From NCBI GenBank assembly GCA_934376955.1, contig CAKRPJ010000001.1, forward strand, positions 21,396 through 85,395: DNA of 64,000 nt, read 5' to 3'. Both the position numbers and the translations under genes were made by a program. The DNA comes from an uncultured Lachnospiraceae bacterium. GTDB lineage: Bacteria; Bacillota; Clostridia; Lachnospirales; Lachnospiraceae. Of this stretch, positions 2,440-47,755 are shown in pieces (positions within the stretch are counted from its first letter, which is position 1; every line of letters starts with the position of its first letter). Below the pieces are notes generated by a model that saw only the letters and a list, made by a program, of their open reading frames with translations, was not told where the DNA came from and did not search any database.

Positions 2440-2671
2440 AACAATTTTTACCTTTACGGAAGAGTTCGATGATGCCGGCCATCTCGTCAAGCGCACCATC
2501 ACAACCGAACAGGGCGAAACAGTTCTGCCGGTAACGCCAAACACCAAGCCGATTGATAACATGCCGTTTATCCCCACTCCAACCCCACGGAAAACGCCGC
2601 TTGATATAATCTGGAAAGCGCCGCCTGATGTAACCTGTAATTCTACCGGAGGTATCGCCCATGAATCCTAA
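2432..2671 (+). CDS. hypothetical protein (TTG start)
   Basis: RBS GGAAGGAGG 8 nt upstream of a TTG. Overlaps the phosphoesterase stop. Confidence 0.35.
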   Translation: MSKTIFTFTEEFDDAGHLVKRTITTEQGETVLPVTPNTKPIDNMPFIPTPTPRKTPLDIIWKAPPDVTCNSTGGIAHES

Positions 2672-2927
2672 AGAATTTGAACTGGCTGCCTGCACTGCCA
2701 TTTCCCGCTACTTCAATGATAACGCCGATGTAACTGGTGTCTATCTGTCACCGGATGATATCTACACCGTCTGGTCGTGCAAAACTCTTCAAAACAATAA
2801 AGGTCTTTTCACCACCCCTGTCAAAGACGGCCTGTATTACGAAGCCACCTATAACGGCGATAAGCAGGAACTCTACGTTGACTGTTATCAAAAGCTTAAA
2901 AACTTTGCAGTAAAAGTCAGCGAATAA
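2661..2927 (+). CDS. hypothetical protein (88 aa)
   Basis: RBS GGAGG before the ATG. Coding-like composition. Confidence 0.5.
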   Translation: MNPKEFELAACTAISRYFNDNADVTGVYLSPDDIYTVWSCKTLQNNKGLFTTPVKDGLYYEATYNGDKQELYVDCYQKLKNFAVKVSE

Positions 2928-2976
2928 AACAACATAGCCCCTATCCACTGTCACCCAGCGGACGGGGGCTATCTTT

Positions 2977-3432
2977 TTAGTTCAGGCCAAAATCAGCTAA
3001 CAACGGGTTCTTCAACAGCATCCCCACAATCACATACCGGTAAGATTTCACACTGCCGTCATAATAAAGGGTTCCTCGTATCCTCTGCTTTTTCACCAGT
3101 CCGGCCATGAACTCTGCCTGCTCTTTTGTAAAGTACAAAGAAACCTGCGGGTAGTTCTTGTCATCCAGCCGCGTTGTAATGTGCCGGTTGATTTCCAGTT
3201 CTGTCGGCAGCACATAGCTTTCTTCCAGGTGCGGCATCAAAGCCCGGTATTCTTTGGTATCTTTCATCACGCAGCGGTCGGCACCCACCGCCATCATCCT
3301 GCCAAGCTCTTCCTGCAACAGCCGGTTTGCCACGGTTCCAATGCGGGTATCTTCAACCTCGGCCTCGTCGTTCAGCACCTCGCGTACACGCATACTCAGC
3401 CGCAGGTTGATTTTCACTTCCTTTGCCATCAC
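2977..3432 (-). CDS. ribbon-helix-helix (CopG/ParG-like) DNA-binding protein with C-terminal extension, translationally coupled to parB
   Basis: N-terminus KINLRLSMRVREVLNDEA is RHH-like. Its ATG overlaps the parB stop (ATGA). Confidence 0.6.
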   Translation of the reverse strand: MMAKEVKINLRLSMRVREVLNDEAEVEDTRIGTVANRLLQEELGRMMAVGADRCVMKDTKEYRALMPHLEESYVLPTELEINRHITTRLDDKNYPQVSLYFTKEQAEFMAGLVKKQRIRGTLYYDGSVKSYRYVIVGMLLKNPLLADFGLN

Positions 3433-4619
3433 TTAACCGTCTCCAGCAGCTCTTTCAACTTCGCAGCTTTTTCAATCAGCTCTGTCAGCGTCTTAATGTC
3501 TTCTGTCCGCTGCTCCTGGCTCATCTTTTTCAGTCCTCTCTTATATGCCGGCGTTGCAATCTTCTTGCCAATCTTACCGGCCAGCGGCTGTAAAGTTTTC
3601 TGAACAAATGTTTTGGTTTCGGCTTTCTTCTCAGCAGTTTCAATCTCGCGTTCAAGTGCAGCCTGTTTTTCGGTTTCAGCAGGCTTTTCGGCCGCCATCT
3701 TTGTTTCAAGTGCGGCCACGCTTGTTTCAAAACTTTGTAATACCCGCTCCAGCCTCTCCTCGCGTTCTTCTGTCGAGTCTCCGTTCCAGGCATCGTCCAA
3801 TCCCTGCTGGGTATCATTGCGGATTCTGTCTCGGTCTTCTTCGTTCACACAGTTAATCGCAAACAATCTATTGTACAAACTCAAAAGTTCCTGTTGCTGT
3901 TTCTCTTCAAATTTGATCAATCTGTCGCATTCTGAGCGTTTCAGCTTTTTGTCATCCAGCAGTTTCAGCAGTCCTTTATTCAGCTCGTTTTCCAGGCGCA
4001 AATCTCTATCAATCATTTTCCCACTTGCGGCACTGATTTCTTTCAAGGCTTTCTTGGCCTCGGTCTGGTTCATGTTATATGGTTCTTCTTGTAAACACTC
4101 AATAAATTCAGCTGATGCCTTGCGCCGGATCATTTCATCCCCAAAACCACCGCGCACCTGCAGGTTAGCGCTGTACAAAATAACTTTCTTTTCATTGTGG
4201 GATAGGGGAGTGGTAACTACATTACAGTTCTTGGCCGCATTCCATGTCGCGTCCTGTTCCTGCAGCAGCATCAATGCTCGGTATCTCCGCTCGCCAGAAA
4301 GCAAAACATACACCGTCTTACCATCTTCCTGCTCAGGGAACACAACCAGGTTGTGCAGCAGGCCATTGCGCTTAATGTCTTCGGCTAATATTTCAATATC
4401 TTCTCCGTTGTCATTCTGACGGAAAATCTCGTTGTCCGGGTTCAGTCGGATGTCTGCCAGGCTGATATCCTTATTTTCAAACTCAATGGTCTTATTGCCA
4501 ACAATCTTTCCAACCAGGGCACGGCCGGCATCGTTATCGTTCACTTCTTTTGCTGCACTGCTGGTAGGAATGTTCAGTTTCTTTTCATTGCCTTTCTTCG
4601 GCTTTGATTTCAAACCCAT
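3429..4619 (-). CDS. parB: ParB-like partition protein (ParB/Srx N-terminal domain)
   Basis: GERRYRA motif in ...VLLSGERRYRALML. Likely start is the internal ATG at 4619, with RBS AAGGAGGA inside the parA 3' end; the ORF-table start is 4649. Confidence 0.85.
   Translation of the reverse strand: MGLKSKPKKGNEKKLNIPTSSAAKEVNDNDAGRALVGKIVGNKTIEFENKDISLADIRLNPDNEIFRQNDNGEDIEILAEDIKRNGLLHNLVVFPEQEDGKTVYVLLSGERRYRALMLLQEQDATWNAAKNCNVVTTPLSHNEKKVILYSANLQVRGGFGDEMIRRKASAEFIECLQEEPYNMNQTEAKKALKEISAASGKMIDRDLRLENELNKGLLKLLDDKKLKRSECDRLIKFEEKQQQELLSLYNRLFAINCVNEEDRDRIRNDTQQGLDDAWNGDSTEEREERLERVLQSFETSVAALETKMAAEKPAETEKQAALEREIETAEKKAETKTFVQKTLQPLAGKIGKKIATPAYKRGLKKMSQEQRTEDIKTLTELIEKAAKLKELLETVK
3876..3900. 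repeat. 25-bp repeat CAAACTCAAAAGTTCCTGTTGCTGT, copy 1, inside the parB coding sequence (putative parS/centromere site)
   Basis: Exact 25-mer shared with two copies upstream of parA. Contains an imperfect palindrome AACTcaaaAGTT. Confidence 0.6.
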
Positions 4620-4620
4620 C

Positions 4621-5475
4621 TCACTTTTCCTCCTTGTCCAGTTTTTCAAGCCGCTGTTTCAGCTCTTTATAAGCTGCCACATAGCTCTTGCCAATCGGTT
4701 GTGTTTTGGCAGAATAACATACCGGCACACATCTTCTCACCGATGTCTTCACGGCCAAAGCGCTGGGTATCTCAGTCTTGAACAGGGTAGGGCCAAGCAC
4801 TCTCTGACATTCTTCCCGCGTCTCTCTCGTGGCCGCACCCTTGTCCACCATGGTCAAAATCACGCCGATTCCTTTCAGGTTCGTCTTTGGGTTCTTGCGC
4901 AGCTCATTGCAAATGGAATAAGTTCTAAATGCTGAATCCTCAGAAAACGAATCGCACATCATCGGGATCAATACATAATCCGCTGCCACCAATGCGTTTG
5001 AAAGGATCATACTGTCACGGGTCGGCTGGGTATCTACAATGATATAATCATAGTTCTCCCGCACTTGGTCCAAAAAGTATAGCAAAAAGTCGGCTGTAGA
5101 TTCCAACCGTCTTGGGTCGCCCACATCATACTGCTGCGCATCAGCCAACAGGTCCGGCAGCCTCTTGTTGATCCGCGGTGTCTGGCTGCTTGCCGGGATC
5201 ATATCAACATTCTCATACTCTGTCCCCACAATATACTCTTTCGTGGAGGTGTACTTGAACCCGTCAAACATATCGTACAGCGCATTGCGGGAATAAGCAT
5301 TGCTTGTAATCGTATTGCCGCCGCTCAATGCAAAGGTCAAGTTGCCCTGCGGGTCGGTATCTACGCACAAAACCTTTTTTCCTTCATCCCCCATTAGGTA
5401 AGCAAGGTTAGAAGCCGTAACCGTCTTACCAGAGCCGCCTTTTTCAATCGCAATCGTAATAATTTTTGCTGCCAT
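4621..5475 (-). CDS. parA: ParA/Soj-family partition ATPase
   Basis: Deviant Walker A IAIEKGGSGKT. Size and downstream motifs fit ParA. Confidence 0.9.
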   Translation of the reverse strand: MAAKIITIAIEKGGSGKTVTASNLAYLMGDEGKKVLCVDTDPQGNLTFALSGGNTITSNAYSRNALYDMFDGFKYTSTKEYIVGTEYENVDMIPASSQTPRINKRLPDLLADAQQYDVGDPRRLESTADFLLYFLDQVRENYDYIIVDTQPTRDSMILSNALVAADYVLIPMMCDSFSEDSAFRTYSICNELRKNPKTNLKGIGVILTMVDKGAATRETREECQRVLGPTLFKTEIPSALAVKTSVRRCVPVCYSAKTQPIGKSYVAAYKELKQRLEKLDKEEK

Positions 5476-5492
5476 AGCTAACCCTCACTTGT

Positions 5493-5517
5493 CAAACTCA
5501 AAAGTTCCTGTTGCTGT
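5493..5517. repeat. 25-bp parS-like repeat, copy 2 (between rep and parA)
   Basis: Exact copy of the 25-mer. Confidence 0.6.
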
Positions 5518-5570
5518 TTAATTTGATTATATCACACTTCGTAGTAATGTCAACGGGGTAGAGCATCTGT

Positions 5571-5595
5571 CAAACTCAAAAGTTCCTGTTGCTGT
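5571..5595. repeat. 25-bp parS-like repeat, copy 3 (between rep and parA)
   Basis: Exact copy of the 25-mer, 78 bp from copy 2. Confidence 0.6.
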
Positions 5596-5642
5596 AACAA
5601 AGTTAAAAATAGGGGAGCCACCTCGTCAGCAGCTCCCCCTGG

Positions 5643-7196
5643 TTATTCTTCAAATGTTGTTTCATCCAGCTGAAACATCGGCTCTTTGCCGTCCTGTCCC
5701 ATCCGCCGTTTCCCGCCTTCAATGATCGTGGCGGAATTTTCTACAATGTCGCTGTACACCACCGTGCGGTAATACTGCGCAGATTTCTTTTCCACATCCT
5801 GCCTCAGCATCACGCTAAACTTCTCCAGTTCACCCAACGCCCAGCTTTTCAGCCCGTGGTTGTTCTGGATGATTCCGTTCAGCGCTTCCAGTGTTTCTTC
5901 AGCCTGGTCTTGTTTGTTCTGGTTGGTCAATATCTTGGCTGCATAAGTAAACACATTTGCCAAAACATTCCGCTCTTCTACGGTCAGCTCCTTCTTGTAG
6001 CCCGCATAGCCAGCCCGGTCTTCTATCTCGCTCCGCGCCTTGCGGAACGTCATTCCCATCACAGCCGGGGGCAGGGGAGAGACCTCTCCGGTTTCAGCCG
6101 CCAACACAGCTTGTTTCTTCGCCTTTTGTTTGCGTGCCACCTCCTGATCGCTGCGCTGGTTCGCGCTCAAAAACGCCCGTACCTTCTCCATCTCTTTGCG
6201 TGATTTGTACTTGATAAAGATATACAGATGAGTGTATTTCCGCACGCCCTTGGTTCGCACCGGCTCATAGTCAAACCACAGGTCTGTCATCTCATTGATC
6301 TCATTTTTTACCAGCTTCAAAACATTGCGTTCAAAGTCTGAAAAATTCGGGTACTTTTCTGTCAATGGTTTTTCGCGGTCATACTTGTTATCCACATCGG
6401 CTTTTTTGCGGTTCATGCCGCGCTCTTCTTTGGTCGGTACAGACAGCAGGTTTTTGAAATCATCAATGCCAAACTTTTTGTACTTGTATCCACGCAGCTG
6501 GTTCCGCTTTGCGGGGAACATCCCCAGCACCTCGTCCGTCACCGGCTCAAACACCAGTCCATTGGCGTATTCGTAGTCCCGGTTTCCATTATCATAAGAT
6601 AAAATAATTTCATACACCCGCATGGAATAGGTGCTCTGCATCATCAGCAGGTATTCAATGCTGTAAGATGTATAATTGCTTGTCAGCTGTGCAATATCTT
6701 TCCAAATGTCCTCATTGAACCGCATACTGATGGTTTTGCCCTCAGTATCAATGATCGAACCTTTGCGTACCCAGCTCATGCTCTTGTACTTGGTTGGGGC
6801 AATCGGTACCCAAAATGTCCGGTTCTCCAAATTTTCAATCGTGTGCTGCAAATATGCCACATAGGCCGGCTTTTCCGCATTCACGCCTGTCAGCTTTGAA
6901 AAGTCGCTGAACGTAATCGTGTAATACTTCGAAGCATCCGTGTCATTTTTCTGGTCGATCTTGGAAAGCAGCATGAACAAAATTTTCTGCTCGTTGCGCG
7001 GCAGGGAATACTTGGTCTTCTGGATCAGGTCATTGCTCTTGGTGATGTAAGAGCCAACGGCAAAAGGGGAGCCGGTCTTCTTTTCCTGCTCCTTTTTCGC
7101 CTTAACCTCTTCGTCCGTCATCACCTCTCCGGTAATCACCGTTCCTGTGCCTGCACGGTTTACTTTTTGGTCTTTCATTATTCTGTTCGCCCGCAT
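5643..7196 (-). CDS. rep: Rep_3-family (RepB-type, iteron-binding) replication initiator
   Basis: ...SYSIEYLLMMQSTYSMRVYEIIL... and ...FSDFERNVLKLVKNEINEMTDLWFDYEPVRTKGVRKYTHLYIFI match the Rep_3 core signature. The iteron field lies immediately upstream. Confidence 0.85.
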   Translation of the reverse strand: MRANRIMKDQKVNRAGTGTVITGEVMTDEEVKAKKEQEKKTGSPFAVGSYITKSNDLIQKTKYSLPRNEQKILFMLLSKIDQKNDTDASKYYTITFSDFSKLTGVNAEKPAYVAYLQHTIENLENRTFWVPIAPTKYKSMSWVRKGSIIDTEGKTISMRFNEDIWKDIAQLTSNYTSYSIEYLLMMQSTYSMRVYEIILSYDNGNRDYEYANGLVFEPVTDEVLGMFPAKRNQLRGYKYKKFGIDDFKNLLSVPTKEERGMNRKKADVDNKYDREKPLTEKYPNFSDFERNVLKLVKNEINEMTDLWFDYEPVRTKGVRKYTHLYIFIKYKSRKEMEKVRAFLSANQRSDQEVARKQKAKKQAVLAAETGEVSPLPPAVMGMTFRKARSEIEDRAGYAGYKKELTVEERNVLANVFTYAAKILTNQNKQDQAEETLEALNGIIQNNHGLKSWALGELEKFSVMLRQDVEKKSAQYYRTVVYSDIVENSATIIEGGKRRMGQDGKEPMFQLDETTFEE

Positions 7197-7361
7197 AGCC
7201 TGTCCGCCATGTCAAGCTCAACCTCCAAATCACAGTGTATGTATCGCATCGCACAGGTGGGTATACCTAACGCATTATATCTTTATCTTACCCTATTTTT
7301 ATCCGCTCGTCAAGCCTAATTTTTTTGCGCTTTTCTTCAAAACAAAACTCGTAGTAAAATT

Positions 7362-7420
7362 TTTTGCGCTTATTATTATTTATTATTTATATTTTATATT
7401 TATATTATATAAGGTATATT
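7362..7420. promoter_or_regulatory. AT-rich tract next to the tandem iterons (putative DNA-unwinding element)
   Basis: TTATTATTATTTATTATTTATATTTTATATTTATATTATATAAGG, essentially all A/T. Confidence 0.4.
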
Positions 7421-7525
7421 GCGAGTTTCTTTTACACGAGCTGCGAGGTTCTTTTATTCCTCATACGAGTTTCTTTTATACTGGCTACGAGTTTCTTTTA
7501 TTCCTGCTACGAGTTTCTTTTACGC
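7421..7525. repeat. five tandem 21-22 bp direct repeats (C)TACGAGTTTCTTTTA(T/C), the reverse complement of the dispersed iteron core
   Basis: Read directly from the sequence. Period is about 21 bp, two helical turns. Confidence 0.7.
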
Positions 7526-8215
7526 AAAATCCTGCTTTTCGCTGTCAAACAACCTCGTAATTGCTGTCAAAAAATCTCGCAGTTCGCATCAAATAATCTC
7601 GTAATTCACGTTAAATTTTTTGTTTCCTGCGCTTTTTGTCAAACAAACTCGTAGTTTTAAGCCAAACGGATAGGGTAGGGGAGTGGTCCCGCCCCTGATT
7701 TTTTTTACGCCTTTTCAAATCAAAAAACTCGTAGTTCATTCCGCTGCATCAACCATCCATATCTGGCCGTCTGAACCATATTTTTTCAATCTTTTGGTCA
7801 AACAAACTCGTAATTCTGGCTATGGGTGGTCATAAATCAACTTCAAGTCCTGTCATGCGCCGCCCGTCCATACCGTCCTGGCTTTATTACAATCGGTATT
7901 TTTTGCGCTTTTTCACCGTAAAAGAAACTCGTAGTTCAGCTCTAAATGCTCTGCCCATCAATCGGCAGCAGGGGAGAGGGTCTGATTTTTTTTGCAGTTT
8001 TCGGCGTAAAACAAACTCGTAATAGCTACAGCAACCAGCGCCGGCCGAATTCAATCTTGTCGCATGTATCATCTATCAATTCATAAACCGTTCATATTGG
8101 CCGTTTTCCCGGTTTCACACCCTATAAGCCTATATACCAAAAAGTATACACCTCACATGCCGGCAATTCAACAAAAATCAATCCCGTCAACCAAATAATA
8201 ACCGCGTACACATTC

Positions 8216-8560
8216 TTGGGTATAACTTTGTGCAACCTGCCTTTGGAAATAACCAGAAAAGTCGTAAACGTAGATGGAACCGATTTGTCAAAAATTCGTT
8301 CGCGCATAAGCGGAACAGTAAATAAAAACTCTAGAACCGGGATAAACGGTGTTGCGCTTACCAAAAAAGGCACCTACAAAGCATATATTAACTTTAAGCA
8401 TAAACGCATTCACCTTGGCTTTTTCACCAATCTAAAAGACGCAGCCGCTGCCAGAAAAGAAGCCGAAGAAATTCTTTACAATAAATTTTTAGACGATAAC
8501 GCCGGTTGGGAACAGCGCCTGGCAGACGCAATGGCCGAATACAAAAAGAACAAGAAATAA
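8216..8560 (+). CDS. stand-alone AP2-domain DNA-binding protein (start uncertain, TTG in table)
   Basis: GINGVALTKKGTYKAYINFKHKRIHLGFFTNLKDAAAARKEAE resembles the AP2/integrase-type DNA-binding domain common in phage HNH nucleases. Confidence 0.55.
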   Translation: MGITLCNLPLEITRKVVNVDGTDLSKIRSRISGTVNKNSRTGINGVALTKKGTYKAYINFKHKRIHLGFFTNLKDAAAARKEAEEILYNKFLDDNAGWEQRLADAMAEYKKNKK

Positions 8561-8569
8561 CCGTCAATT

Positions 8570-8598
8570 TCGCTAAAGCTTAATTTAGCGAAATATAG
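8570..8598 (+). terminator. hairpin TTCGCTAAA-GCTTAA-TTTAGCGAA after the AP2 gene
   Basis: 9-bp perfect inverted repeat. Weak U-tract. Confidence 0.35.
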
Positions 8599-8703
8599 GG
8601 AACCCGATAAAATCTTCAAAACCTCCTTGACATATGACATAAAATGTCGTATCCTATAACCAAAGGAACGACATTAAACGTCATACAGATAGGAGGCTTT
8701 CTT

Positions 8704-9210
8704 ATGGCTTTAACTACAGAACAAGTTTTTGCAATGGGTATTCTCTATAATCAACTAACCACAGCAGTTTATGGTGACGATGGTCCAAAAGCAAACAGCT
8801 TCCAAAACGCCACCATGTATCCGTTTTTGGAAATTACCAAGCTGATTCTTCGTGCCCGTTCTGAACGTCGTATCTCTCCAGAGCTGGATCGCCTGATTGC
8901 CCAAACATATTCAACCCTTACCGAAGAAGACGTTCAGAGCGGGTTTAGCAGCATTCTTCCCGTTGAACTGCAAGGTGCCTTTGCTCTTGGTTATTATCAT
9001 GGCCAGGTCGAAAAGTATTCGGATATCAAGCCCATCGGTCTCAAAGCCATGCGTGCCCGCGCTAATATGACTGTCCAACAGGCAGCAGATAAACTCGGTA
9101 TATCCGCCCGCCAATACCAACGTATTGAATCTGGCGAAAGCAAACCTACTGTTCAGGCAGCACAAACTCTTGCCTCGCTGTTTCAATGCTCTGTCAATGA
9201 TTTATTTTAA
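8704..9210 (+). CDS. XRE-family helix-turn-helix protein (HTH at the C-terminus, novel N-terminal domain)
   Basis: C-terminus TVQQAADKLGISARQYQRIESGES is an HTH_XRE. RBS AGGAGG 9 nt before the ATG at 8704. Confidence 0.7.
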   Translation: MALTTEQVFAMGILYNQLTTAVYGDDGPKANSFQNATMYPFLEITKLILRARSERRISPELDRLIAQTYSTLTEEDVQSGFSSILPVELQGAFALGYYHGQVEKYSDIKPIGLKAMRARANMTVQQAADKLGISARQYQRIESGESKPTVQAAQTLASLFQCSVNDLF

Positions 9211-9221
9211 GAGGTAGTTTC

Positions 9222-9812
9222 ATGCTTCGTCGCTGCACTCGCTGCGGAAGTTCATTTGAAGGGCAAAAAGAACAGCGCCTATGCCCCTCATGTCGTGAAC
9301 AGGCCGCTCATAAACCACGCATGATATCTCATGTTTGTAAGTCGTGTGGTGCTACTTTTACCGGTGGTCCTCGTGCATCTTTCTGCCCAGAATGTAAGGC
9401 GGAACGTGATAAGCAGGCTGTAAAAAAATGTCGGAACCTTGCTAAAAACAAGACCACTCGCCAAATTGGATCTACCGATATCTGTCAGCGGTGTGGCAAG
9501 CCTTATATTGTAAAAGGTGGCCTTCAAAAATATTGTCCAGAATGCGCCCCGATCTCCTTAAAAGAAAAAACCGAGCCGTTAAAACGTGCCTGGGCTGCCA
9601 ATTACCGTGAACAAAACCCAGACCACAAAAAGAACATGCAGAAAAACGGAACAATTTGTGTTGTCTGCGGAAAAACTTTTGCTGCAGTAGATCGTAGTAA
9701 TGCTTGTTCTCCTGAATGTTTAGCAATTCTTAAAAAACAACAGCAATACCATAAGGACATAAAACGTGGGCGTTATAAAAAAATATCAAACACAAAAGGA
9801 GAACCATCATGA
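9222..9812 (+). CDS. protein with four tandem CxxC...CxxC zinc-ribbon units
   Basis: Four units of C-x2-C-G-x(10-13)-C-(P/S)-E-C. RBS GAGG. Confidence 0.6.
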   Translation: MLRRCTRCGSSFEGQKEQRLCPSCREQAAHKPRMISHVCKSCGATFTGGPRASFCPECKAERDKQAVKKCRNLAKNKTTRQIGSTDICQRCGKPYIVKGGLQKYCPECAPISLKEKTEPLKRAWAANYREQNPDHKKNMQKNGTICVVCGKTFAAVDRSNACSPECLAILKKQQQYHKDIKRGRYKKISNTKGEPS

Positions 9813-10237
9813 TAACTGAAATTATTGTAGGGGTTCTTGCCTGTACCCGTAGAACCTCGGAACATGGCCCCGTCACAACAACCTATTTTACCTTTGTGTC
9901 AAATGATCCGTATCAGGCTCACCGTCTTCCGGCTGGCTGGGTTCTTCAAGGTCAAAAACCATCCGGTGTCCCCTGTAAAAAACTCGTCACCATCGAACTG
10001 CCAGATTATATTCATGATGCCAATAGCGATTTTGGCACTTACTATATTTCTGAATATTCCACCAAAGACGGCAACGCAAACAGGGTTTTCTTTTCCTGTG
10101 ATGTTATCCCCGTTCTGGACGGCTTTGAACCCGCAATCAACTCCGCCATTCAAACCATCAAGATCTCCACACCAACCCCATCCGGCAAGCGCGAAGATCT
10201 TCCTGCCAAAGTTCTTTCTGTTTCTGAACTGTATTGA
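9809..10237 (+). CDS. hypothetical protein (142 aa), start overlaps the previous stop (ATGA)
   Basis: Translational coupling. No recognisable motif. Confidence 0.5.
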   Translation: MITEIIVGVLACTRRTSEHGPVTTTYFTFVSNDPYQAHRLPAGWVLQGQKPSGVPCKKLVTIELPDYIHDANSDFGTYYISEYSTKDGNANRVFFSCDVIPVLDGFEPAINSAIQTIKISTPTPSGKREDLPAKVLSVSELY

Positions 10238-10258
10238 TACTTCCAACCTGCTAAAAAA

Positions 10259-10301
10259 TAGGGAGCACCCAAGGTTCCAAACCAAAGGTACTCCCTATTC
10301 C
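10259..10301 (+). terminator. stem AATAGGGAG...CTCCCTATT with a large loop after the + strand regulatory operon
   Basis: 9-bp inverted repeat followed by a T-containing tract. Confidence 0.35.
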
Positions 10302-10515
10302 TGTTTGTATAATTCTTTGCTGTTTTTACTCAAGCGTAAAATTTACTTGTGATCCAACGACTCTTTATGGTATACTATTTTCCAGAGGATTGAAGCTCCG
10401 CTGAATTTCACCCAACTTTATAAGCGCTTAGGCGGCCACCTCCCACTAGCCGGAAGGCTGAATGGAGGTTTAATCATTTTCGCCTTTCGGCAATCTTGTT
10501 GTCGGAGGTGATGTC

Positions 10516-10611
10516 ATGAATTCTATTATAGATGTGCTTGCAATCGTAAGCTGCATCGGTACATGGACTGGCATTTTTGTGGCCATTTATTTTGGTCGTA
10601 AAAAGAAATGA
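10516..10611 (+). CDS. 31-aa hydrophobic peptide MNSIIDVLAIVSCIGTWTGIFVAIYFGRKKK (type I toxin-like or membrane peptide)
   Basis: GGAGG 7 nt upstream of the ATG. Single TM helix plus KKK tail. Sits in a 400-bp non-coding stretch between convergent genes. Not in the ORF table because it is under 60 aa. Confidence 0.4.
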   Translation: MNSIIDVLAIVSCIGTWTGIFVAIYFGRKKK

Positions 10612-10762
10612 GGCTACCTAACTAGCACTTAGGCGGCCTCATCTGAACTGGGTACATTGTCCAAGATGTATTTGGTTCATTTGCAGCTAACTGAGGTATT
10701 CGCTTATTAAGAGCTTCAATCCTCTACTTGTATTATATACCATGGGTGGCAAGCTGTCAACC

Positions 10763-11137
10763 TTAACGCTTAAACAAAAACTCTTGTATATCGTCAAATG
10801 CTCGCTGCATCTGCTCCACATTGTCGCCGTTCAGGTTGTGCCCCAGCTGTGCAAATTCCGCCCGCAGCAGCATGTTAATGCTTTCATCCAGGCTATTCAG
10901 GTGCTTCTTCACACCCTCCAACTGTTTGTCAAACGTGTCGCAGCGCCCTTCCACCGTTTTCAGCCGCCCTTCAATCTTGTCCATCCGGGCATCCTGGTCT
11001 TTGTTTGGCTTTTTCAAAAAGTTGTTGAACTTAACCACCACGGCAATCGCAGCCGAAATACTAACCAACGCCCCACAAACTGAAAGCATCATCGTCAGTA
11101 TGTCCTGCGCCGTAAATGTAAATACCGGGTTAGGCAT
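10763..11137 (-). CDS. membrane-anchored coiled-coil protein, last gene of the lysis cassette
   Basis: N-terminal TM (LSVCGALVSISAAIAVVV) then a heptad-rich region. Confidence 0.5.
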   Translation of the reverse strand: MPNPVFTFTAQDILTMMLSVCGALVSISAAIAVVVKFNNFLKKPNKDQDARMDKIEGRLKTVEGRCDTFDKQLEGVKKHLNSLDESINMLLRAEFAQLGHNLNGDNVEQMQRAFDDIQEFLFKR

Positions 11138-21078: not shown

Positions 21079-24000
21079 TTACACGCTGAACATCACGCGC
21101 ACGCCATGCTGCTCATTCGGGGTAACATAGCTGTAAATCTGGCCGTCTGCCGCAACCTGCAAAAAGTAATCTGCATACTGAACATTCGGGCTGCGTGTCC
21201 AATAAGTGGTGGCCGCGCCATCATCGTCATAGCAGATTCGGCTCTGATTATCCGTCATGTAACTGATCGTTGTACCTTCATAAATATACGGCTCACTGTT
21301 CATGCTGGGGTTCAGCTCATATGCAGCCGGTATAAAGAAGTAACAATCCGCCGTCACAATTTCCTTGGATGTTCCGCCCGCACTGGATGTCACTTTTACC
21401 TGCTGGATCAACTGCTGCCATCCAATCGGCAAGGCATTCGGCAGCCGCTTGTCCAGGTAGGTGCGCAGCGTTGCTGCGGGCCAACCACCATTGTTGTGAT
21501 AGCTGCTGGTAATCGGCATCTTGCGTGCCAGCGTATTTTTCGCTAAAAACGTCATTGCGCAGCGCTTGTTTGTGTTATCGCTTAAATAAAACTGCTTAAA
21601 TCCGCACATCTCATATTCGCGGGTTTCATGCGGCCATGCAGCCAGCTTCCGGCAGGCATTGTCGCCCAGGTCTGCATACCAAACTTTCGCCCAGTACACA
21701 TCACCCTTGGCAAACCGTTCATATTCCCCGTCATCTGCCTTGGCACAACCAAACACCAGCGTTGCATTGGTCTGTGTAATTCGTCCACGGTTAATCTCGG
21801 TGTAAACAATGTCGTCACCGTAAATGTTAGCCGTATACACATGCAGGTTGTTTTCGCCCTTCTTGTGGCGCATTACCACCATGTCACGGGTTCCAACTGT
21901 GGCAGCTGTTGCGCTTTCGGTGCCCCAACTGATCTTGGCTCCATTATTGTTCCAAATGCGGATACCGTTCATGCCGTTGGTTTCAAAACACTGCATCAGC
22001 ACAGCATTGGCCGTATCGGTTGTGGTCATCCGGTAATCTACCGCCAGCACCCAGTCCCGGTCTTCCTTCAACAGCTGCACACCAGTGTCCACATAGTTGG
22101 TGCCATCAAAGGTCTTTTTCTCGTTAATCAAAACCTTCTCTTCAATGTCAGAGTAGCTAAAGTCGTTGCCCATCGTAATGGTCACAGCGTCCTTGGGGCT
22201 AACCACCTTATTCTCCACACCAACCTTTTTCATTGCGTAAATCTCGACCGGGCGCAAACTGCCAATCTCTTTGCCGTCAAAGTAACCAGAGGTGTATTCG
22301 CAGCTGTCATATACCGCATTGATGTCCTTGTCTCCGTTCACATATCCGCCCTTGTCCCAATGGTCAAACAGGTAGAACTTATAGGCACCTTCCTCCGCCG
22401 TGTAGGTCGGGGTATCGCCTTCGTACAACACCATGCTGCCATAGGGGGCAACTGTTTTCTGTTTCTCCGCACCATTGTTCAGGTAGCGCACGGTATACTT
22501 CCGTACACTCTCGGTATATTTGGCCGTTACGGTCTGGTTGGTAAATACTGTAACAAACTCTGTGTCCCATCCAGCATAGGTAAAGTCAGTGCTCACCGTG
22601 CTCTTCTTGGTCGGCTTCGGGATCGGCTTCTCCGCACGGGTCACAGGGTCAACAGCCTTACCACCCTTGTCAATGTACTGCACATCCAAAACTGTGTGCT
22701 CGTCATCATCATTCACAAAGGTCCAGGTAAACTGTTCCACCAGCGTATTGTAGCTGATCTTCAAATCCGGCCACTGTGCATTAAATTCTGCCAGCTTCTT
22801 TTCACGCATAATGGGCACATGCACCTTGCCCTCCAGTACAGAGTGCTCAGTGTTATAGCCGTTCTCATCCAGGCCGGTCATCGTGTACAGCCGGTCAAGC
22901 AGCGCTGTATCCTCGCATTCCCAATCAAGGCCAGTCAGGCGCACGCGGTTCAAACCTGTGCATTTTTCCAACATAGCTTTCAGGTCAATGGTCGGGCAGC
23001 TTTCCACAACCAGTGTGGTCAGGTTCTCATAGCCGTCAATCTTCAAATCGGTCAGGTGGTTCAGGCTCTGTGCCGTCAGGCTTGCAATCGCAGGCAGTTC
23101 AGCCTTTTCAATCTTGCCGCCCTTGGCAAACGCCACACCGGTAATACCGCTGCCGCCGGCATAAAAATCGGTCAGGTTTACACATCCCGCCAAGCTGATG
23201 GATTTCTTCAGGTTTGGCACATTCTGCAAATTCAGGTGTTCCAGCAGCGTATTGTTACCAACTGCAAAGTCGGTCAGGTTTGTGTTGCGGTAGCCTTCGG
23301 TGCCGTTGCCAACCTTCAAGTCGGTCAATTTCGCACCATGGCTAAAATCAACATACCCAGGGTAAAATCCACTAATGTCGCCAATGCTCTGTATCAGGCT
23401 GGCATTGTAAACATAAACCTCGGTATCGTTCATGGCTGCAATCGGGCACTCAATCGTGTAGGTCTGGCCGCGCTTGCCGCGCATTTTTACCGGGTTGGAG
23501 CCATACAAAACACTCACATAGGTATCTGCATATGGGCGGATATGGAACGTACCGTCCGGCTGCACACCTGTCCAGTTGGTCGGGGTATAGCCGCGGATCG
23601 TCATATCATCAGCCGTGCAGGTCGTGCCGCTATACTTGCTCGCAATATACTTTTCCTGGTATTTCTGGTACTGGCGGCGCTGGTGACGCTTGTTGCCGTG
23701 CATCATCGGCAGGTAACTGGTCGTTCCATTGTCTTCATAGGTGCGGAAATATTTGCGCCGCATGTCCATGATCCAAAGCTTTTCGGGCTTCACATCCTGG
23801 TACGCCTCAATCTTGCGCAAAATACGGTTTGCACTCCAGGCCAAAGCGCTCTCACGGTTCAGGTACATCTTCTGCAAGTCATCTGCAAAAAGATCTCGTA
23901 CCTTGCACCACAGCTTGCTGTCTGCCGCGTTAAACACGCTCTTGGTGCCAATGGTGTCGGTGTCCTCATAGCCGTAAGTCAGTGTCAATCCGCCCTCGTT

Positions 24001-27000
24001 GTCGTTGCCCTGGCAGGTATCGTTGTCGTAATCCATGCAAAAATCCCAATGGATCAGATCTTCTGTGTGGGGGAACACATTCTTGGCGCGGTTATCCACC
24101 ATTGTGTGGCGCTCAGTGAACAGATAAAAGAACAGCACACTGTCCTTGATAAAGTGGTCCTCAAAATGGGTCTTAAACTCTTCATCATCTGCATTTACTA
24201 CCCAGGTCAGCAAGCTCTGCCAGGCATTCTTTGCCGCCTGTGTTTCTTCCTCAGTGCAGTTTTTGCTAATATAGCGAAACTCAAAGCTGTGGTCGCCGTC
24301 CCAGGTTTCCTGGCTCAGATCATCACTCAAAAAGCGGGTCTGGGCATCGGTGTTGTTATCAATCTCAACAATAACTTCCTTGTGGTTTTCGGGGTCCATG
24401 CCCTGGGTATCATTGTTCTTCTTGCTGTTGCCAATATCACCGCAGGCGTAAAAATGCCACTGGCCGTCCTTAAACACCGTTGCGTTCTCCACGTCCGTTT
24501 CCTGAATAAACACCACGCACGGGTAAAACGCCATCGTATCGCGCACCTTCGGGTTATCTTTCTTTGCCTGGCGGGTATATGGGTTAAACGTGTTGTAATC
24601 ATCTGCAATGCAGGCGTTGTTTGCGTTTTCAGAACTTGCAATGTTTACCTTGATATTAAAATATTTCTCCGGGATACTGTCCTTAGTCAAGGTATAGGTG
24701 CTGCCGGTACTATCATCGCCAAACGTAAATCCACCGGAACAGTTAATATCAATGTTTCGGCCGCTCTCGCCATACGCATTGGAGCTGGTGCCCTGGCCTT
24801 TATGGCTGCCGGTCGCGGTCCAGTTATCCTCCACAGCGCGTCCGTTCTTGTAAATCTGCTGAATGGTGGTATTAAAAACCTCATTCTTTTTGCCGGTCGT
24901 AAAGGTCGGGGCACTGATCTTGATAATGCGCAAATCCGGGCACTTCTCGGCCAAAAGGTCAGCATCCAGTTCGCCGCTTACGTTGGTAATATCGTTGCGG
25001 TTATAGCGTTCAATCATCAGCTCGGCGTTCTTGGCATCCGCAATAAAGTTGTCCAGGATCTCATCGTCCGTCAGTTCCATGCCGTAGGTCTTCATGCGGT
25101 ATACCTGCACATCACAGTCCGCAGAGCCAATCGTAATGCCAACCGGGCTTGCCTGTGTAAAGTTGTCGCTTGCATCGTACAGTTCCACCTTACAGGGGAT
25201 ACCGTCGCACCATAGCACCATCTCTTTATACTTGCTGTCCGGCAAAATATTGAACTCAAACTCCAAAAAGTCATCTTCGCAAATCGGCAGCTCAATGCGG
25301 TTCTGCTGGCTGGTCAAGGTAATCTTCTGTGCCTGTACCGTCAAACCAACGTTGCCATTTGCGCAGGTTAGCGCCGTAGCATCGTAGTCTCGCACATTGG
25401 TGGTTTTAAACACCAGCTTAAAGTTCTTACCCTTCTTTTTGGCATCGTCCGCAAACAGCTTATAATCCAGCGTGGCGGTAGTTCCGGCTTTCACGCAAAA
25501 GTAAGTATCGCCGTCCTCATCAATCTGGTAGCCGCCATTGCTCCAGTCAAAGTTGTCGCTTACAGTCATTGCGGTATTGCCATCAGTCCACAGGCGGTTT
25601 TCGTCCGCATTGGTTCGGCCAGCCGGGTTAAAGTCAAACATCAGGTTGGTTTTCACCGGCTCAATGTTAATACCCAGCTCGGTAATTTTTACATTGATGG
25701 TCTTTACCGTCTCGCCGCAGGTAATGGTCAGCACATGGCTGCCAATCTCGCTGCTCTTGTACGTCCAGGTCTGTTTGGTGCGTCCCACCGTTAGCTTGCT
25801 GGCAACAATGCCATCCACAGCCAGGGTCACATTGGTGTTGCTGCTGGCCGGATCATACACGGTATAGCTGATCGCAACATTGCTGTACTGTTTAGCACTG
25901 TAATCCAGCACGGCACAACTGATAATCGGGGTGTTATTGCCCTCTTCCACCCACATAATATCGTGGCGCAGGGTGTTGCTTGTCACCTGTTTGCCATTGA
26001 TCTCCGCCGTCATGCTCACTTCCAGCAGGTGGCTGCCGTGCTTCTGGGTGGGCAAATTGTAGGTCATCTGGCGGCCTGTCACTGCAGTGCTTGTTCCACC
26101 AATCGCCTTGCCATCCAACTTAAAGCTGATGTTTTTGGCAATATTGCCATACGGAGTAAACCGGTAAGTTACTTCGCCGGAATAAAAAAGAGAGTCATCA
26201 AAAATGCTCTCCAAATAAAACTCAACAACATTAACCGACCAGTTCTTGCTGCCCACACTGCCCATGCTGTCCGTAACCTGCAGCCGCACAGTGTTGTCAC
26301 CGCTGTGCAAGTATTGCGTCACATCAAAGGTGTTCTTGCCCTGGATGATGGTCGTGGTTGCCACCTTGGTGTTGCCCACATACCAGTTGCCAGTCGCATT
26401 GCCGGTGTCATCGCCAGCATTGTCCACACTCGTAAACTTAAAGCCGATCAATGCACTGTCACCCTGAACTACCGTCAGGCTGCTGTCACCAATTCGTTCA
26501 ATGGTAATGGTGCTGGTTGCCTCACCGCCACCACCGCCACCACCTTTAATGGTAACAACAGTCTTGGTTGTGCCGTCTTCCAACAGGCTCAAATGACCGT
26601 CATCACTGGTGTAAGTAATGTCGTACTCATGGCCGTTGCTGGGCTTAATATCTTTGATCTTTTCCTGGATTTCTGCAATGTCGCTGTTGGCCGTATCCAC
26701 ACTGCCCTGCAAAGCTGCCACGGTATTCTTGGTCACAGTCAAATCATTGGTAAATCCATCCAGAGCAGTTTTGTCCGCCTTATCAGCCAGCAGTTTGTTG
26801 GTTGCTTCCTTATTATAATAATCACTCTGCAAGGTGTTCGGCAGGTCGCCTACACTATCCTGCAAAGCTTTCACAGCTTCGTTGTTGCTGGTCTTGTATT
26901 CATCCAGCGCTGTACTTACCGGGTCTACCGCCGCGCTGATCTTAGCATCCACCGTCTTGCCATATGCGGTCGTCCACTCTGCGCTGGGGTCGGTGCTCAA

Positions 27001-36803: not shown

Positions 36804-37253
36804 TTATTCAAATTTTTCGTTTTCATGACTATCTCTAAAGTCTATCGGCTCACTCGTAGGCGGATACCGAAAAGTAAACACATATTTGTCATCGTAATGG
36901 GTAAACGCGAATTCACCCTTTCCTAAAATATCCATTCCGATTAAAATATCTTCATCGTTACTACCGGTAATAAATTCAGGCATAAAGCGTTCAGCAGCTT
37001 TCATCCGGTGCTCAATAATAAGCCCGGCACGGTACACTTTTACACCTTCCTGCCTACCAGCGGCAGTGTTCGCATCACTAAGTAATACAGGTTTTAGCTC
37101 TGCCTTTTCTGCCAACCGTTTAGAAATACTGGTATATGTCGCCCCAGTGTCAACAACCGCTCTTACAGGATATGTTTTGCCATTAGCCAAAACTTCTACA
37201 TTCAGAACAATACTATTTTGCTCTAACTCTTTTATTGCGGTAAACGGCGGCAT
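36804..37253 (-). CDS. retropepsin-like (clan AA) aspartic peptidase, paralog A
   Basis: VVDTGATYTSIS catalytic DTGA motif plus ILIGMDIL flap/C-terminal motif. RBS AAGGATG. Confidence 0.7.
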   Translation of the reverse strand: MPPFTAIKELEQNSIVLNVEVLANGKTYPVRAVVDTGATYTSISKRLAEKAELKPVLLSDANTAAGRQEGVKVYRAGLIIEHRMKAAERFMPEFITGSNDEDILIGMDILGKGEFAFTHYDDKYVFTFRYPPTSEPIDFRDSHENEKFE

Positions 37254-46452: not shown

Positions 46453-47340
46453 CTATGCGGCTCTTAGCCTTTCCCAGCAATTTGGGTATTTAATTATTTG
46501 ACACCTGCATCCTACACAACTATTCCCCTTGTGTAAACGGGCATACAATTTACCACTGGTGCCTTTATTTTTAATAAGTGACGTTACAAGCCCTGCACTT
46601 ACACCACTTATTGCAACTGGAATTAGTCCAATATTATCAACGAGTTTTACAACTGCATCGGCAGCATTAGTAATCCATGTTGCCAGTTCGATAAACTTTT
46701 TAACTATATCGCTATCCAGCACATCCTTAGAAAGCTTCTCAAATGCTGCTGTGAACTGCGAAATCTTACCATTGATACTATTAAGGTAAGTCTCATTTTC
46801 TTTTGTGGCGCTGCCGGCAGATTCAGCAGCAGTCTTGGCGGCATCCTGTGCGTCCTTCCAGTTGTCCAGCATACCGGAAACAACGTTAGCGCGGTTCTTG
46901 CCAGCAACCTGTTCCAACAGGGATGCTTTGTCGACGTCGTTCATTTCTTTCCAGACGTTGGCAATGCCTTCCATGATTTCATAGGTGGACTTAAAATCCC
47001 CGCTCTTGGTTAAGATATCAAATCCGCCCTTACCGTCAACATTGGTCAATGCCTTGATCTGGTCACGCAGTTTAGAGGTGCTTACTGCTACATCATCAGT
47101 GCTTTCGCCCATCTGTTCAAGATCGGTCTTTGCGCCACGGATGCGCAGTGACAATACTTTCAGCGCGTTACCTACCGACTCCGGGTCCTGCGCAACATCA
47201 TTGGCAGCCACAATCATACCAATACTCTGATCCAACGTGTTTCCTGCGGTATGCAAGGCGGATGCCGAGCGCTGTAGCGCACTGCCAACTCCAGCCGAGG
47301 AGATGGCATAATTATTCAAGCTGTTACTTTCACGGATCAA
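46453..47340 (-). CDS. tape measure protein, downstream segment (continues the TP901-type core region; last ~35 aa of the ORF look non-native)
   Basis: NNYAISSAGVGSALQRSASALHTAGNTLDQSIGMIVAANDVAQDPESVGNALKVLSLRIRG continues the core begun in 47561..52711, but in another frame. Confidence 0.7.
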   Translation of the reverse strand: MIRESNSLNNYAISSAGVGSALQRSASALHTAGNTLDQSIGMIVAANDVAQDPESVGNALKVLSLRIRGAKTDLEQMGESTDDVAVSTSKLRDQIKALTNVDGKGGFDILTKSGDFKSTYEIMEGIANVWKEMNDVDKASLLEQVAGKNRANVVSGMLDNWKDAQDAAKTAAESAGSATKENETYLNSINGKISQFTAAFEKLSKDVLDSDIVKKFIELATWITNAADAVVKLVDNIGLIPVAISGVSAGLVTSLIKNKGTSGKLYARLHKGNSCVGCRCQIIKYPNCWERLRAA

Positions 47341-47755
47341 CCGTTACTGACCGTAAACAATACGGCGGGTAGTCATTTCTGGCTACCTCTCATGTTTCAA
47401 GTATTAGGTTATAGCATGAGTTCGGACTGTATATTACCGATGTCTTATCGGAATTTACTTCAACATACCTGTTGCCAAGTATATCCTGCAGTCTCTAGGG
47501 ATTTATAGAATTTAACGATTTTATCTTCAACTTGTTCCGCAGTTAAAGTGTATGGCAATCTTAACAACGGAATTTTATTATCTTTTCGTTTGTTAGAGAT
47601 TGTTCCTTTAATAAACTGACCTTTGTTATTTCTTGTACACATAAAAAAATAACCTCCCTATTGCCATATAGGAAGTTATCGTTAAATTCCATATCTTTCC
47701 TCGGTCTTGGGTGCCTCCACCCTTTAACCGATATAGTAAATTTGGGGCAATGTTG
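47341..47755 (-). other. intervening sequence of ~410 nt splitting the tape measure gene (group I intron-like, boundaries approximate)
   Basis: The conserved core is interrupted between ...FNEVGK(Q) and (S)LNNYAISS. The insert contains stop codons and a free-standing small ORF with its own RBS. Confidence 0.5.
47460..47642 (-). CDS. 60-aa ORF inside the intervening sequence; degenerate HNH homing-endonuclease-like N-terminal fragment
   Basis: NNKGQFIKGTISNKRK resembles the GQF.KGH.PWNKG motif of phage HNH endonucleases. RBS GGGAGG. Confidence 0.4.
   Translation of the reverse strand: MCTRNNKGQFIKGTISNKRKDNKIPLLRLPYTLTAEQVEDKIVKFYKSLETAGYTWQQVC

Follow-up and report, generated by a model that had tools for sequence, protein, structure and literature searches.

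Elements that are both phage and plasmid are called phage-plasmids in the sense of Pfeifer and Rocha. In a survey of gut viruses they made up 6.2% of the viral operational taxonomic units (vOTUs), among which no SPbeta-like group of 145 kb was described (bioRxiv 10.1101/2025.02.07.636470). Here we analyse a stretch of 64,000 nucleotides from an uncultured Lachnospiraceae bacterium (GCA_934376955.1, contig CAKRPJ010000001.1, positions 21,396 to 85,395), in the following referred to as the window, in which a gene for a Rep_3-type initiator, a field of iterons and genes for ParA, ParB and a ribbon-helix-helix (RHH) protein are embedded in phage genes. We refer to this group of four genes with its origin region as the cassette. 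An initial annotation had proposed that the phage persists as a low-copy plasmid prophage and thus represents a predicted phage-plasmid. We consider this core reading probable, based on a sister lineage that carries an excisionase (Xis) and an integrase (Int) in the position of the cassette, a circular assembly of 147 kb, 13 further contigs of similar size, the lack of contigs above 200 kb in assembly look-ups and the presence of related cassettes on plasmid-like contigs of 170-350 kb.

Several described systems share features with this locus. Like P1, the element is a tailed phage with a predicted iteron-controlled initiator, with one set of iterons at the origin and a second one nearby, and it combines a ParA/ParB partition operon with a separate lytic replication system. 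P1 also encodes Cre, a non-integrative tyrosine recombinase, to which we liken a tyrosine recombinase of 322 amino acids (aa) of the phage studied here, whose role is predicted. The phages P1 and P7 differ in the specificity of ParB for parS through a discrete region of ParB, and two alleles of ParB and its putative sites in the clade of the window look similar to this difference. However, no sequence relationship to P1 is detectable beyond the family level. Also unlike P1, the phage has a presumed Gram-positive anaerobe as host and a siphovirus virion of the SPbeta/YonB capsid type, its ParA has only 284 aa and no N-terminal DNA-binding domain such as that of type Ia ParA proteins, a gene for a predicted tandem RHH protein is an extra member of the operon, and the candidate centromere lies on both sides of the par promoter, with another copy inside parB.

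In Clostridioides difficile, the siphophages phiCD5763, phiCD2955 and phiCD211/phiCDIF1296T of about 131-134 kb were reported to be circular and extrachromosomal, and parM-like (actin-type) segregation genes were reported for these large phages (PMC5786514). Together with the share of phage-plasmids among the gut vOTUs, this indicates that the initial annotation overstated its case when it called such elements poorly documented in Gram-positive and anaerobic hosts. The phage of the window has a capsid protein of the same family (its YonB-like protein is 25% identical) and a similar genome size, but it carries a Rep_3/iteron system with ParA and ParB, and the extrachromosomal state, which was observed in isolates of C. 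difficile, is predicted here. With SPbeta, the phage has in common YonB, YomU, YomV, YomW, YomN, YonG, YonJ, YonD, a YonO-type RNA polymerase and the alpha subunit of DNA polymerase III (PolIII-alpha), as well as a similar genome size. SPbeta integrates by means of the large serine recombinase SprA, whereas no serine recombinase was detected in the phage of the window, and the 50-kb stretch of SPbeta that was read is devoid of a Rep_3/ParAB cassette. An integrase-fold protein of SPbeta, YopR/MrpR, is a repressor (PMC10516654).

With regard to plasmids, the 'Hodor' elements are conjugative megaplasmids of the human gut that encode Rep_3, ParA and ParB and in which Rep_3 is preceded by a non-coding stretch of more than 2 kb (PMC12934698). 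The order of Rep_3 followed by ParA and ParB, the occurrence in the human gut and the frequent filing in viral databases are shared with the element in the window, which differs in being a phage without conjugation genes and in its shorter origin region of 1.1 kb. The replicons of F (RepE, ori2/incC), pPS10 (RepA) and R6K (pi) resemble the cassette in their initiators with two winged-helix domains (WH1 and WH2), in 22-bp direct iterons next to an AT tract and in extra iterons outside of the minimal origin. Unlike in these plasmids, Rep has an additional C-terminal region of about 190 aa, no DnaA box is found within 7000-8400, and the iteron arrays occur in both orientations. The phage-plasmid lifestyle and maintenance by iterons and ParAB are hence already known, and what is new is the lineage and the context.

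A plasmid-type cassette in the place of an integration module

The window corresponds to the reverse complement of about 50.9-114.9 kb of a human-gut metagenome scaffold of 141,708 bp (scaffold_157, ERZ28615150) and is, as judged from its predicted genes, part of an SPbeta-like siphophage genome of about 145 kb. Its virion genes match the Pfam families YonB capsid, YomU_Tube, YomV_2nd, YomW and YomN, and homologues of YonG_N, YonJ_N and YonD_N adjoin the window. As the initial annotation had stated, lysis, tail and head modules are present: capsid, tube, tape measure, fibres, a Peptidase_M23 protein and a holin are all encoded in the window, with lysis and fibre genes adjoining the cassette. 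Together with the packaging genes, the predicted virion and lysis genes stand next to genes for plasmid replication and partition (Rep_3, ParA, ParB), so that both sides of a phage-plasmid are represented in the gene content. Bro-N/KilAC antirepressors and a Cro/CI-type regulator are hallmarks of a temperate phage.

The capsid protein is 25-38% identical to that of large siphophages of Brevibacillus, Bacillus, Lactococcus (949 group), Staphylococcus (SPbeta-like) and Clostridioides difficile (phiCD211 group), the identity to the listed SPbeta-like Staphylococcus phages being only about 30%. Since no serine recombinase family was matched by the genes of the window or by the scanned open reading frames (ORFs) of a composite genome described below, the phage is SPbeta-like in virion terms only. 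An identical capsid protein was found in 246 blocks of the assembly collection, 119 of which have contigs of 50-200 kb, from which we conclude that the phage is common in human guts.

Beyond the window follow genes for PolIII-alpha, a DnaB-like helicase, AAA_24 and PD-(D/E)XK proteins, NrdD, ThyX, dUTPase, nucleases, a YonO-type RNA polymerase and antirepressors. The counterpart of the single-subunit RNA polymerase YonO of SPbeta is a protein of 850 aa (L210 7449-10001), which matches the eukaryotic-type RdRP family (7e-15). PolIII-alpha occurs in the clade in at least three alleles, two with 95-99% and 41-45% protein identity to the type of the window and a third with about 70% nucleotide identity (L019), which means that the replication module is mosaic while the Rep/Par cassette is constant.

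All of the about 35 IMG/VR contigs with a PhoH protein of at least 94% identity carry the cassette, with Rep being 97-98% identical; taken together, Rep and ParA are 97-100% identical over these contigs despite mosaic neighbouring regions. Among the loci examined in otherwise intact relatives, no frameshifts or deletions of the cassette were detected. A sister lineage, in which PhoH is 62-67% identical, has the same backbone genes around this place (PhoH, phosphoesterase, lysis genes). In 12 of its 13 loci, the interval of the cassette, which is bounded by the phosphoesterase and lysis genes, harbours a Tn916-type Xis (2e-22) and an integrase. This integrase matches Phage_integrase (2e-35), carries the Tn916 N-terminal domain and is found in at least four allelic forms. 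In 10 of the 12 integrase loci the contig ends 3-306 bp past int, as is expected at the end of a prophage, and one locus continues past int into the lysis genes and represents the excised form. No tRNAs were found near the integrases of the sister lineage. The cassette is absent from this interval in the sister lineage, whose contigs were also not retrieved in a ParA scan that catches close relatives only.

The two lineages thus differ at one locus, where a module for integration is replaced position for position by a plasmid module. As a complete cassette is located exactly where the sister phages carry their integrase, persistence as a low-copy plasmid is the most likely explanation. The visible backbone genes of the sister lineage occur without the cassette at this place, which makes it unlikely that Rep_3 is the lytic initiator. 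An assembly chimera was considered and rejected, since the same junctions are found in dozens of independent assemblies. A megablast search with positions 2900-8200 of the window against phage and plasmid collections gave no match.

Architecture of the replication and partition cassette

The features of the cassette and of its surroundings are listed in Table 1. The Rep_3 initiator named by the initial annotation was corroborated by matches to Rep3_N (3e-25, residues 51-198) and Rep3_C (2e-11, residues 278-324) of Pfam (PF01051/PF21205), both of which pass the curated cut-offs, and by a PDB sequence search, in which pPS10 RepA, F RepE and R6K pi were the matches. Rep is a member of PHROG 4402 (replication initiation protein) and gave weak matches to RepM/RepE of NCBIfam, while its C-terminal extension of about 190 aa is without a family match.

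Table 1 Features of the cassette and its surroundings in the window (positions refer to the window; strand as in the window; a dot marks features without strand).
Feature	Position	Strand	Remarks
Candidate oriV, non-coding, 5' of rep	7197..8284	.	1.09 kb without called gene; contains all 14 iterons and the AT tract
Five dispersed iterons (7640, 7720, 7799, 7920, 8008)	7640..8026	+	family D1; 36-nt context; spacing 79-121 bp
Three tandem iterons, opposite orientation	7546..7615	+	families D2 and D3; spacing 22 bp
Five tandem iterons	7419..7531	-	repeat family D4; spacing 22 bp
AT tract, candidate DNA-unwinding element	7356..7420	.	65 bp, 91% AT
Single iteron	7340..7358	+	AAACAAAACTCGTAG; between candidate rep promoter and AT tract
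Candidate rep promoter	7313-7285	-	weak promoter-like site
rep	5643..7196	-	517-aa Rep_3-family initiator with WH1 and WH2
Intrinsic terminator after rep	5611..5639	-	12-bp stem with 7 GC pairs, followed by ATTTTT
28-bp repeat copy 1, candidate parS/operator	5568..5595	-	upstream of the par -35 element; ACAGCAACAGGAACTTTTGAGTTTGACA
par operon promoter	5526..5553	-	TTGACA, 16-nt spacer, TGnTATAAT; 12/12 matches to the sigma-70 consensus
28-bp repeat copy 2, candidate parS/operator	5490..5517	-	downstream of the par -10 element; identical to copy 1
parA	4621..5475	-	284-aa Walker-type partition ATPase without N-terminal DNA-binding extension
parB	3429..4619	-	396 aa; ParB_N domain and GERRYRA box
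28-bp repeat copy 3, candidate parS	3873..3900	-	inside parB; 25/28 matches
Predicted tandem RHH protein	2977..3429	-	150 aa; start overlaps parB stop by 1 base
Cro/CI-type (RstR-like) regulator	8704..9210	+	168 aa; HTH_3 2.5e-13; NCBIfam phage_RstR 5e-11, under cut-off

The dense iteron field next to an AT-rich tract, another element of the initial annotation, could be resolved into single units. The iteron core AAACTCGTAR occurs nine times in the window compared to 0.2 expected occurrences, and eight of the nine are located within 7345-8022. In total, 14 iterons are in register, i.e. a single one, five and three in tandem and five dispersed, each of the latter being preceded by a T-rich/GCGC leader. 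The dispersed iterons represent a candidate copy-control set. The AT tract contains the most AT-rich 60-mer of the whole window. In the four relatives that were compared (L013, L014, L016, L018), the arrangement of the iterons is kept unit for unit. No DnaA-box-like site was detected within 7000-8400, and an Rfam search of 2800-10800 at E values up to 1 gave no match and hence no known antisense or copy-control RNA. The window contains no tRNA genes.

The comparison with more distant cassettes suggests that Rep and its putative binding sites evolve together. The iteron of the window is AAACAAACTCGTAG, that of a cassette whose Rep is 60% identical (L063) is AAACAATCTCTG, and that of a cassette with a Rep of 39% identity (L098) is AAACAAAACTCCTTTT; all three versions have the same layout of tandem and dispersed iterons spread over 1-2.4 kb. 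As the iteron sequence changes along with Rep, the predicted specificities of initiator and iteron are matched across the three versions.

The initial annotation had assigned rep, parA, parB and the RHH gene to a single operon, which was not borne out by the sequence between rep and parA. Since rep has a terminator of its own and the par genes are preceded by a promoter, which is the sole perfect consensus site in 2800-8800, rep is separate from a parA-parB-RHH operon. A comparable hairpin with a T-run following rep was also read off the sequences by eye in five distant cassette versions (L104, L062, L063, L098, L101), and the gap between rep and parA of the same five versions contains a strong promoter with repeats of the AGCAACA type around it.

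The assignment of ParA and ParB downstream of rep was supported by several searches. ParA matches AAA_31 (3e-36) and CbiA (2e-19) of Pfam as well as PHROG 164 (ParA-like, 2e-50) and harbours a deviant Walker A motif (EKGGSGKT, residues 11-18); its match to ParA_partition of NCBIfam is under the cut-off. For parB, gene callers place the start at ATG 4619, one nucleotide past the stop of parA, and not at TTG 4649. The match of ParB to ParB_N (9e-7) is weak but passes with 29.3 bits versus a cut-off of 26.3, its SGERRYRA sequence aligns with Spo0J (Spo0J match 3.5e-4), and it belongs to PHROG 4715 (ParB-like), while the match to parB_part of NCBIfam is under the cut-off. The RHH gene overlaps the stop of parB with its start and appears translationally coupled, as had been noted from the start. 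Its product is predicted to be a single-chain tandem RHH protein: in the predicted structure, beta-alpha-alpha units pair into a two-stranded sheet as in the ribbon-helix-helix superfamily. No match was obtained for this protein in sequence searches (Pfam, NCBIfam, PHROGs, PDB profile), and it was identified by fold search only.

Two ParB alleles co-vary with the 28-bp repeats

The par region contains three copies of a 28-bp repeat, for which no chance matches are expected. Perfect or near-perfect palindromes of 14-20 nt are absent from 2500-8300. We examined 29 loci of the clade with a full-length parB match and found the three repeats kept at their positions in all of them, with ParB falling into two alleles. 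Allele A (9 loci) is 95-99% identical to ParB of the window, and each of its loci has three copies of the motif of the window. Allele B (20 loci) is 77-79% identical and is accompanied by three copies of a motif B at the same three positions, namely AGCAACAAAGAATTGGTTCTTTT, which holds the palindrome AAAGAA-N4-TTCTTT. The difference between the alleles is limited to residues ~197-315 of ParB. Rep, ParA and the RHH protein show no split along the two alleles; ParA, whose gene is located between the promoter repeats and parB, stays 97-100% identical across both groups.

Because the repeats co-vary with ParB but not with Rep, ParA or the RHH protein, ParB is a good candidate, although only a candidate, for the protein that reads the repeats, which would then function as centromere and operator. 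The RHH protein could be an alternative binder of the 28-bp sites. Some contigs stop at the boundary between the RHH gene and parB (L015, L020, L033). We rejected the idea that these are cut circles, as no ParA is found at their other end; the ends are assembly breaks at the boundary of the ParB alleles.

From these features a mechanism of maintenance can be proposed, in which the binding events, the copy number and the extrachromosomal state are all predictions. Rep would bind the 22-bp iterons beside the 91% AT tract and open the DNA for theta replication driven by the host. The inverted triplet and the five dispersed iterons may titrate or handcuff Rep and keep the copy number low, comparable to incC/incA of P1 and ori2/incC of F. 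ParA, ParB and the tandem RHH protein would be expressed from their own strong promoter, with ParB recognizing the 28-bp repeats as centromere and operator and ParA segregating the copies. Lytic replication would rely on PolIII-alpha, the DnaB-like helicase and the nucleases of the phage itself. Multimers would most plausibly be resolved by the 322-aa tyrosine recombinase in the role that Cre has in P1.

Genome form and a conserved tyrosine recombinase

One relative of the phage, IMGVR_UViG_3300045988_160599, has a length of 147,397 bp and identical ends of 99 bp, and both ends are adjacent in scaffold_157. From this we conclude that the contig closes as a circle with the cassette inside and without host DNA. 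A further 13 independent contigs have sizes of 143.5-147.4 kb, and the break points of contigs vary from assembly to assembly. Look-ups of Rep, PhoH, the capsid protein and two RHH variants in a protein-indexed assembly collection returned no block with a contig above 200 kb; two RHH clusters were flagged 'ncbi', and the places shown for them are metagenome contigs throughout. A linear prophage of the N15 type was rejected, since no protelomerase family was matched and one relative closes as a circle.

Several points weigh against maintenance as a plasmid. The data are metagenomic throughout, and a circular assembly is equally obtained from circularly permuted, terminally redundant virion DNA. 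The genome outside of the window is a composite of relatives (contigs 160599 and 162747 and one metagenome contig) and not the contig of the window itself, and the scan of this composite covered ORFs of roughly at least 150 aa. One contig with the cassette, IMGVR_UViG_3300045988_152590, measures 233,354 bp, about 147 kb of which is phage sequence. Its end lies 2.1 kb upstream of the 322-aa recombinase, and at its left there is about 86 kb of extra sequence. As the marker genes are present in a single copy, this contig is not a simple concatemer, and its left part may be host flank, chimera or co-integrate. The large Bacillus siphophages FADO, PJN02, PK-3 and 2S-4 (OM236516, NC_071050, ON881243, ON133270), which have the same capsid family, encode a ParA of 30% identity, so that ParA alone is no indicator of lifestyle. 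The co-variation of ParB with its sites comes down to two haplotypes and hence to few independent events.

A further point against it is the 322-aa recombinase. The initial annotation had found no integrase in the window, and this statement held: no called gene of the window matches an integrase or recombinase family, and tblastn with two integrases found nothing there. It does not extend to the remainder of the genome, since the search of the composite revealed the 322-aa tyrosine recombinase about 20 kb past the right end of the window (L288 8226-9194, contig 160599). The protein matches Phage_integrase (9e-15) and PHROG 216, labelled 'integrase' (2e-43), it has recognizable R, H-x-x-R, H and Y motifs, and with 97-100% conservation in 50 contigs its gene is among the most conserved of the clade. 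Chromosomal integration by this enzyme has to be kept in consideration.

The phage could accordingly be an ordinary integrating prophage with the 322-aa recombinase as its integrase and with Rep and the Par proteins as auxiliary functions, for example in a temporary episomal stage that follows infection or induction. Apart from the properties of the enzyme, this would be in line with several contigs that stop 50 bp to 4.5 kb upstream of its gene and with the end and the unexplained 86 kb of the 233-kb contig. We nevertheless regard integration as unlikely. About 40 long contigs continue with phage DNA on either side of the recombinase gene, which is collinear apart from insertions and deletions of single strains, and the contig ends nearby are located at variable distances within a hypervariable stretch of 3.5 kb and not at one site. 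The recombinase, which is the sole one in the composite scan, belongs to a non-canonical subfamily: its family matches are confined to the catalytic domain, it has neither an arm-binding nor a Tn916-type N-terminal domain, and no excisionase was recognized next to it. The phage proteins closest to it (35-37% identity) are short recombinases encoded in the interior of Streptococcus prophages, and in the one record examined, Javan374, a separate canonical integrase is present at the end of the prophage. Furthermore, an integrated phage has to be reconciled with the missing contigs above 200 kb in the look-ups, and the sister lineage uses a different, Tn916-type Int at the position of the cassette.

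The confinement to the catalytic domain, the lack of a recognized excisionase, the collinear flanks and the internal homologues together lead us to think that the 322-aa recombinase is not the integrase of lysogeny. By analogy with Cre, a function in the resolution of plasmid multimers is plausible. A homology to YopR/MrpR or YopP of SPbeta was rejected, as there is no BLASTP similarity. The mosaic hypervariable stretch of about 3.5 kb lies directly upstream of the recombinase gene (L326 6360-10000), and many assemblies break there.

Related cassettes on large plasmid-like contigs

The same four-gene cassette is carried by contigs of 172-346 kb and by a contig of 224 kb binned as Clostridiales, which have no other similarity to the phage. 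Compared to the window, these distant cassettes are 39-62% identical in Rep, 63-79% in ParA, 42-54% in ParB and about 30% in the RHH protein. On the contigs of 172-346 kb, ParA is 78-79% and Rep 39% identical, whereas Rep of the 224-kb contig is 60% identical. Each distant cassette has its own iteron sequence in a field of 1.7-2.4 kb. Related cassettes were binned with genomes of Oscillospiraceae, Acutalibacteraceae and other Clostridia, and none of the species representatives of GTDB has a Rep that is more than 62% identical. The contigs of 172-346 kb and of 224 kb possibly correspond to 'Hodor' megaplasmids, which they resemble as far as the published description goes.

These cassettes also bear on a second explanation, according to which Rep_3 and the iterons constitute a vegetative origin for early theta replication of the phage and ParA and ParB position the DNA during lytic growth, without a stable plasmid prophage. 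Many phages encode iteron-binding initiators, the large Bacillus siphophages with ParA form plaques, and the cassette is placed between the blocks of early and late genes. We consider a purely vegetative function distinctly unlikely, as the sister backbone carries Xis and Int instead of the cassette at this place, so that the cassette is apparently not needed for lytic replication, and the genome has its own set of polymerase, helicase and nucleases. The control-type layout of the iterons, the predicted autoregulation of the par operon and the centromere-like repeats are features of low-copy maintenance, and the same cassette resides on the plasmid-like elements of 170-350 kb. That the cassette, which is modular and has related versions in unrelated elements, is a captured plasmid fragment or a selfish passenger without a function in maintenance is highly improbable in view of four intact ORFs, 14 iterons kept in four relatives, three par repeats kept in 29 loci, near-identical Rep and ParA (97-100% over about 35 contigs) amid mosaic surroundings and a ParB region that changed in concert with its sites.

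Returning to maintenance as a low-copy plasmid prophage, the observations can be joined to a wider scenario that we put forward tentatively. A prevalent gut lineage with an SPbeta-type virion may have exchanged the integration module of its sister for the replicon of large plasmid-like gut elements, possibly of the 'Hodor' type, and may now exist as a low-copy plasmid of about 145 kb, with two ParB/centromere alleles in one species that are perhaps partition-incompatibility types. The interest of the locus is increased by the swap at a single locus with an integrative sister, by a replicon that very large gut plasmids apparently have as well, and by the presence of two ParB/centromere alleles in one phage species. 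If the scenario is true, it would represent a natural, sequence-resolved lifestyle switch at a single locus and an exchange between phage and megaplasmid in gut Clostridia, and the ParB/centromere alleles may allow related phage-plasmids, or a phage and a megaplasmid, to coexist in one cell.

Lifestyle predictors that are based on integrases would misjudge this phage or be misled by the stray recombinase. The presence of Xis and Int or of Rep and Par at one locus provides a clean natural comparison for the interconversion of integrative and plasmid prophages, and the apparent sharing of the replicon with very large gut plasmids bears on incompatibility and on the gene flow from phages to plasmids and back in Clostridia. 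With about 5.4 kb, the cassette is compact and fully delimited, which makes it a candidate replicon for the genetic manipulation of poorly tractable Clostridia of the gut.

Neighbouring and accessory genes

The Cro/CI-type regulator of 168 aa is located in a stretch of variable content that separates the origin from the lysis genes and is a neighbour rather than a member of the cassette. It is a candidate immunity repressor, and among the relatives it is 79-94% identical or missing. Between the origin and the regulator gene, about 1.2 kb has been lost in the window (8216-8560 compared to L018 18742-20186). Many relatives keep at this place a helix-turn-helix (HTH) protein of 229 aa and a zinc-ribbon protein of 246 aa with an AP2/HNH-associated DNA-binding domain, of which the C-terminal 91 aa alone are left in the window.

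The early region of relatives holds a pair of genes that encode a ThiF-family (E1-like) protein and a reverse transcriptase (RVT_1, 1e-12 to 4e-14) (L406 4383-5066 and 5375-6649; L381 5271-6629) and that could represent a diversity-generating or defence-type retroelement. Positions 41000-46500 of the window have a GC content of 36-41% compared to about 50%, plus-strand ORFs break the structural genes of the minus strand there, and the content varies among relatives; this block looks like a moron or accessory island. One strain (L243 10588-16828, IMGVR_UViG_3300029849_000009) departs from the window at about 40.9 kb and continues with other genes up to the contig end. It encodes an ORF of 394 aa with a tblastn match of 28% over about 250 residues to a Tn916-type integrase, and its divergence may go back to another mobile insertion or mark an integrative variant.

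Two small genes of the window, 36804-37253 (149 aa) and 45442-45864 (140 aa), lie among tail and variable genes and match the retroviral-type aspartic protease families Asp_protease_2 and gag-asp_proteas. Besides a tape-measure-like protein of 1,716 aa (47561-52711), the tail region encodes a protein of 2,292 aa with DUF6273 (21079-27957).

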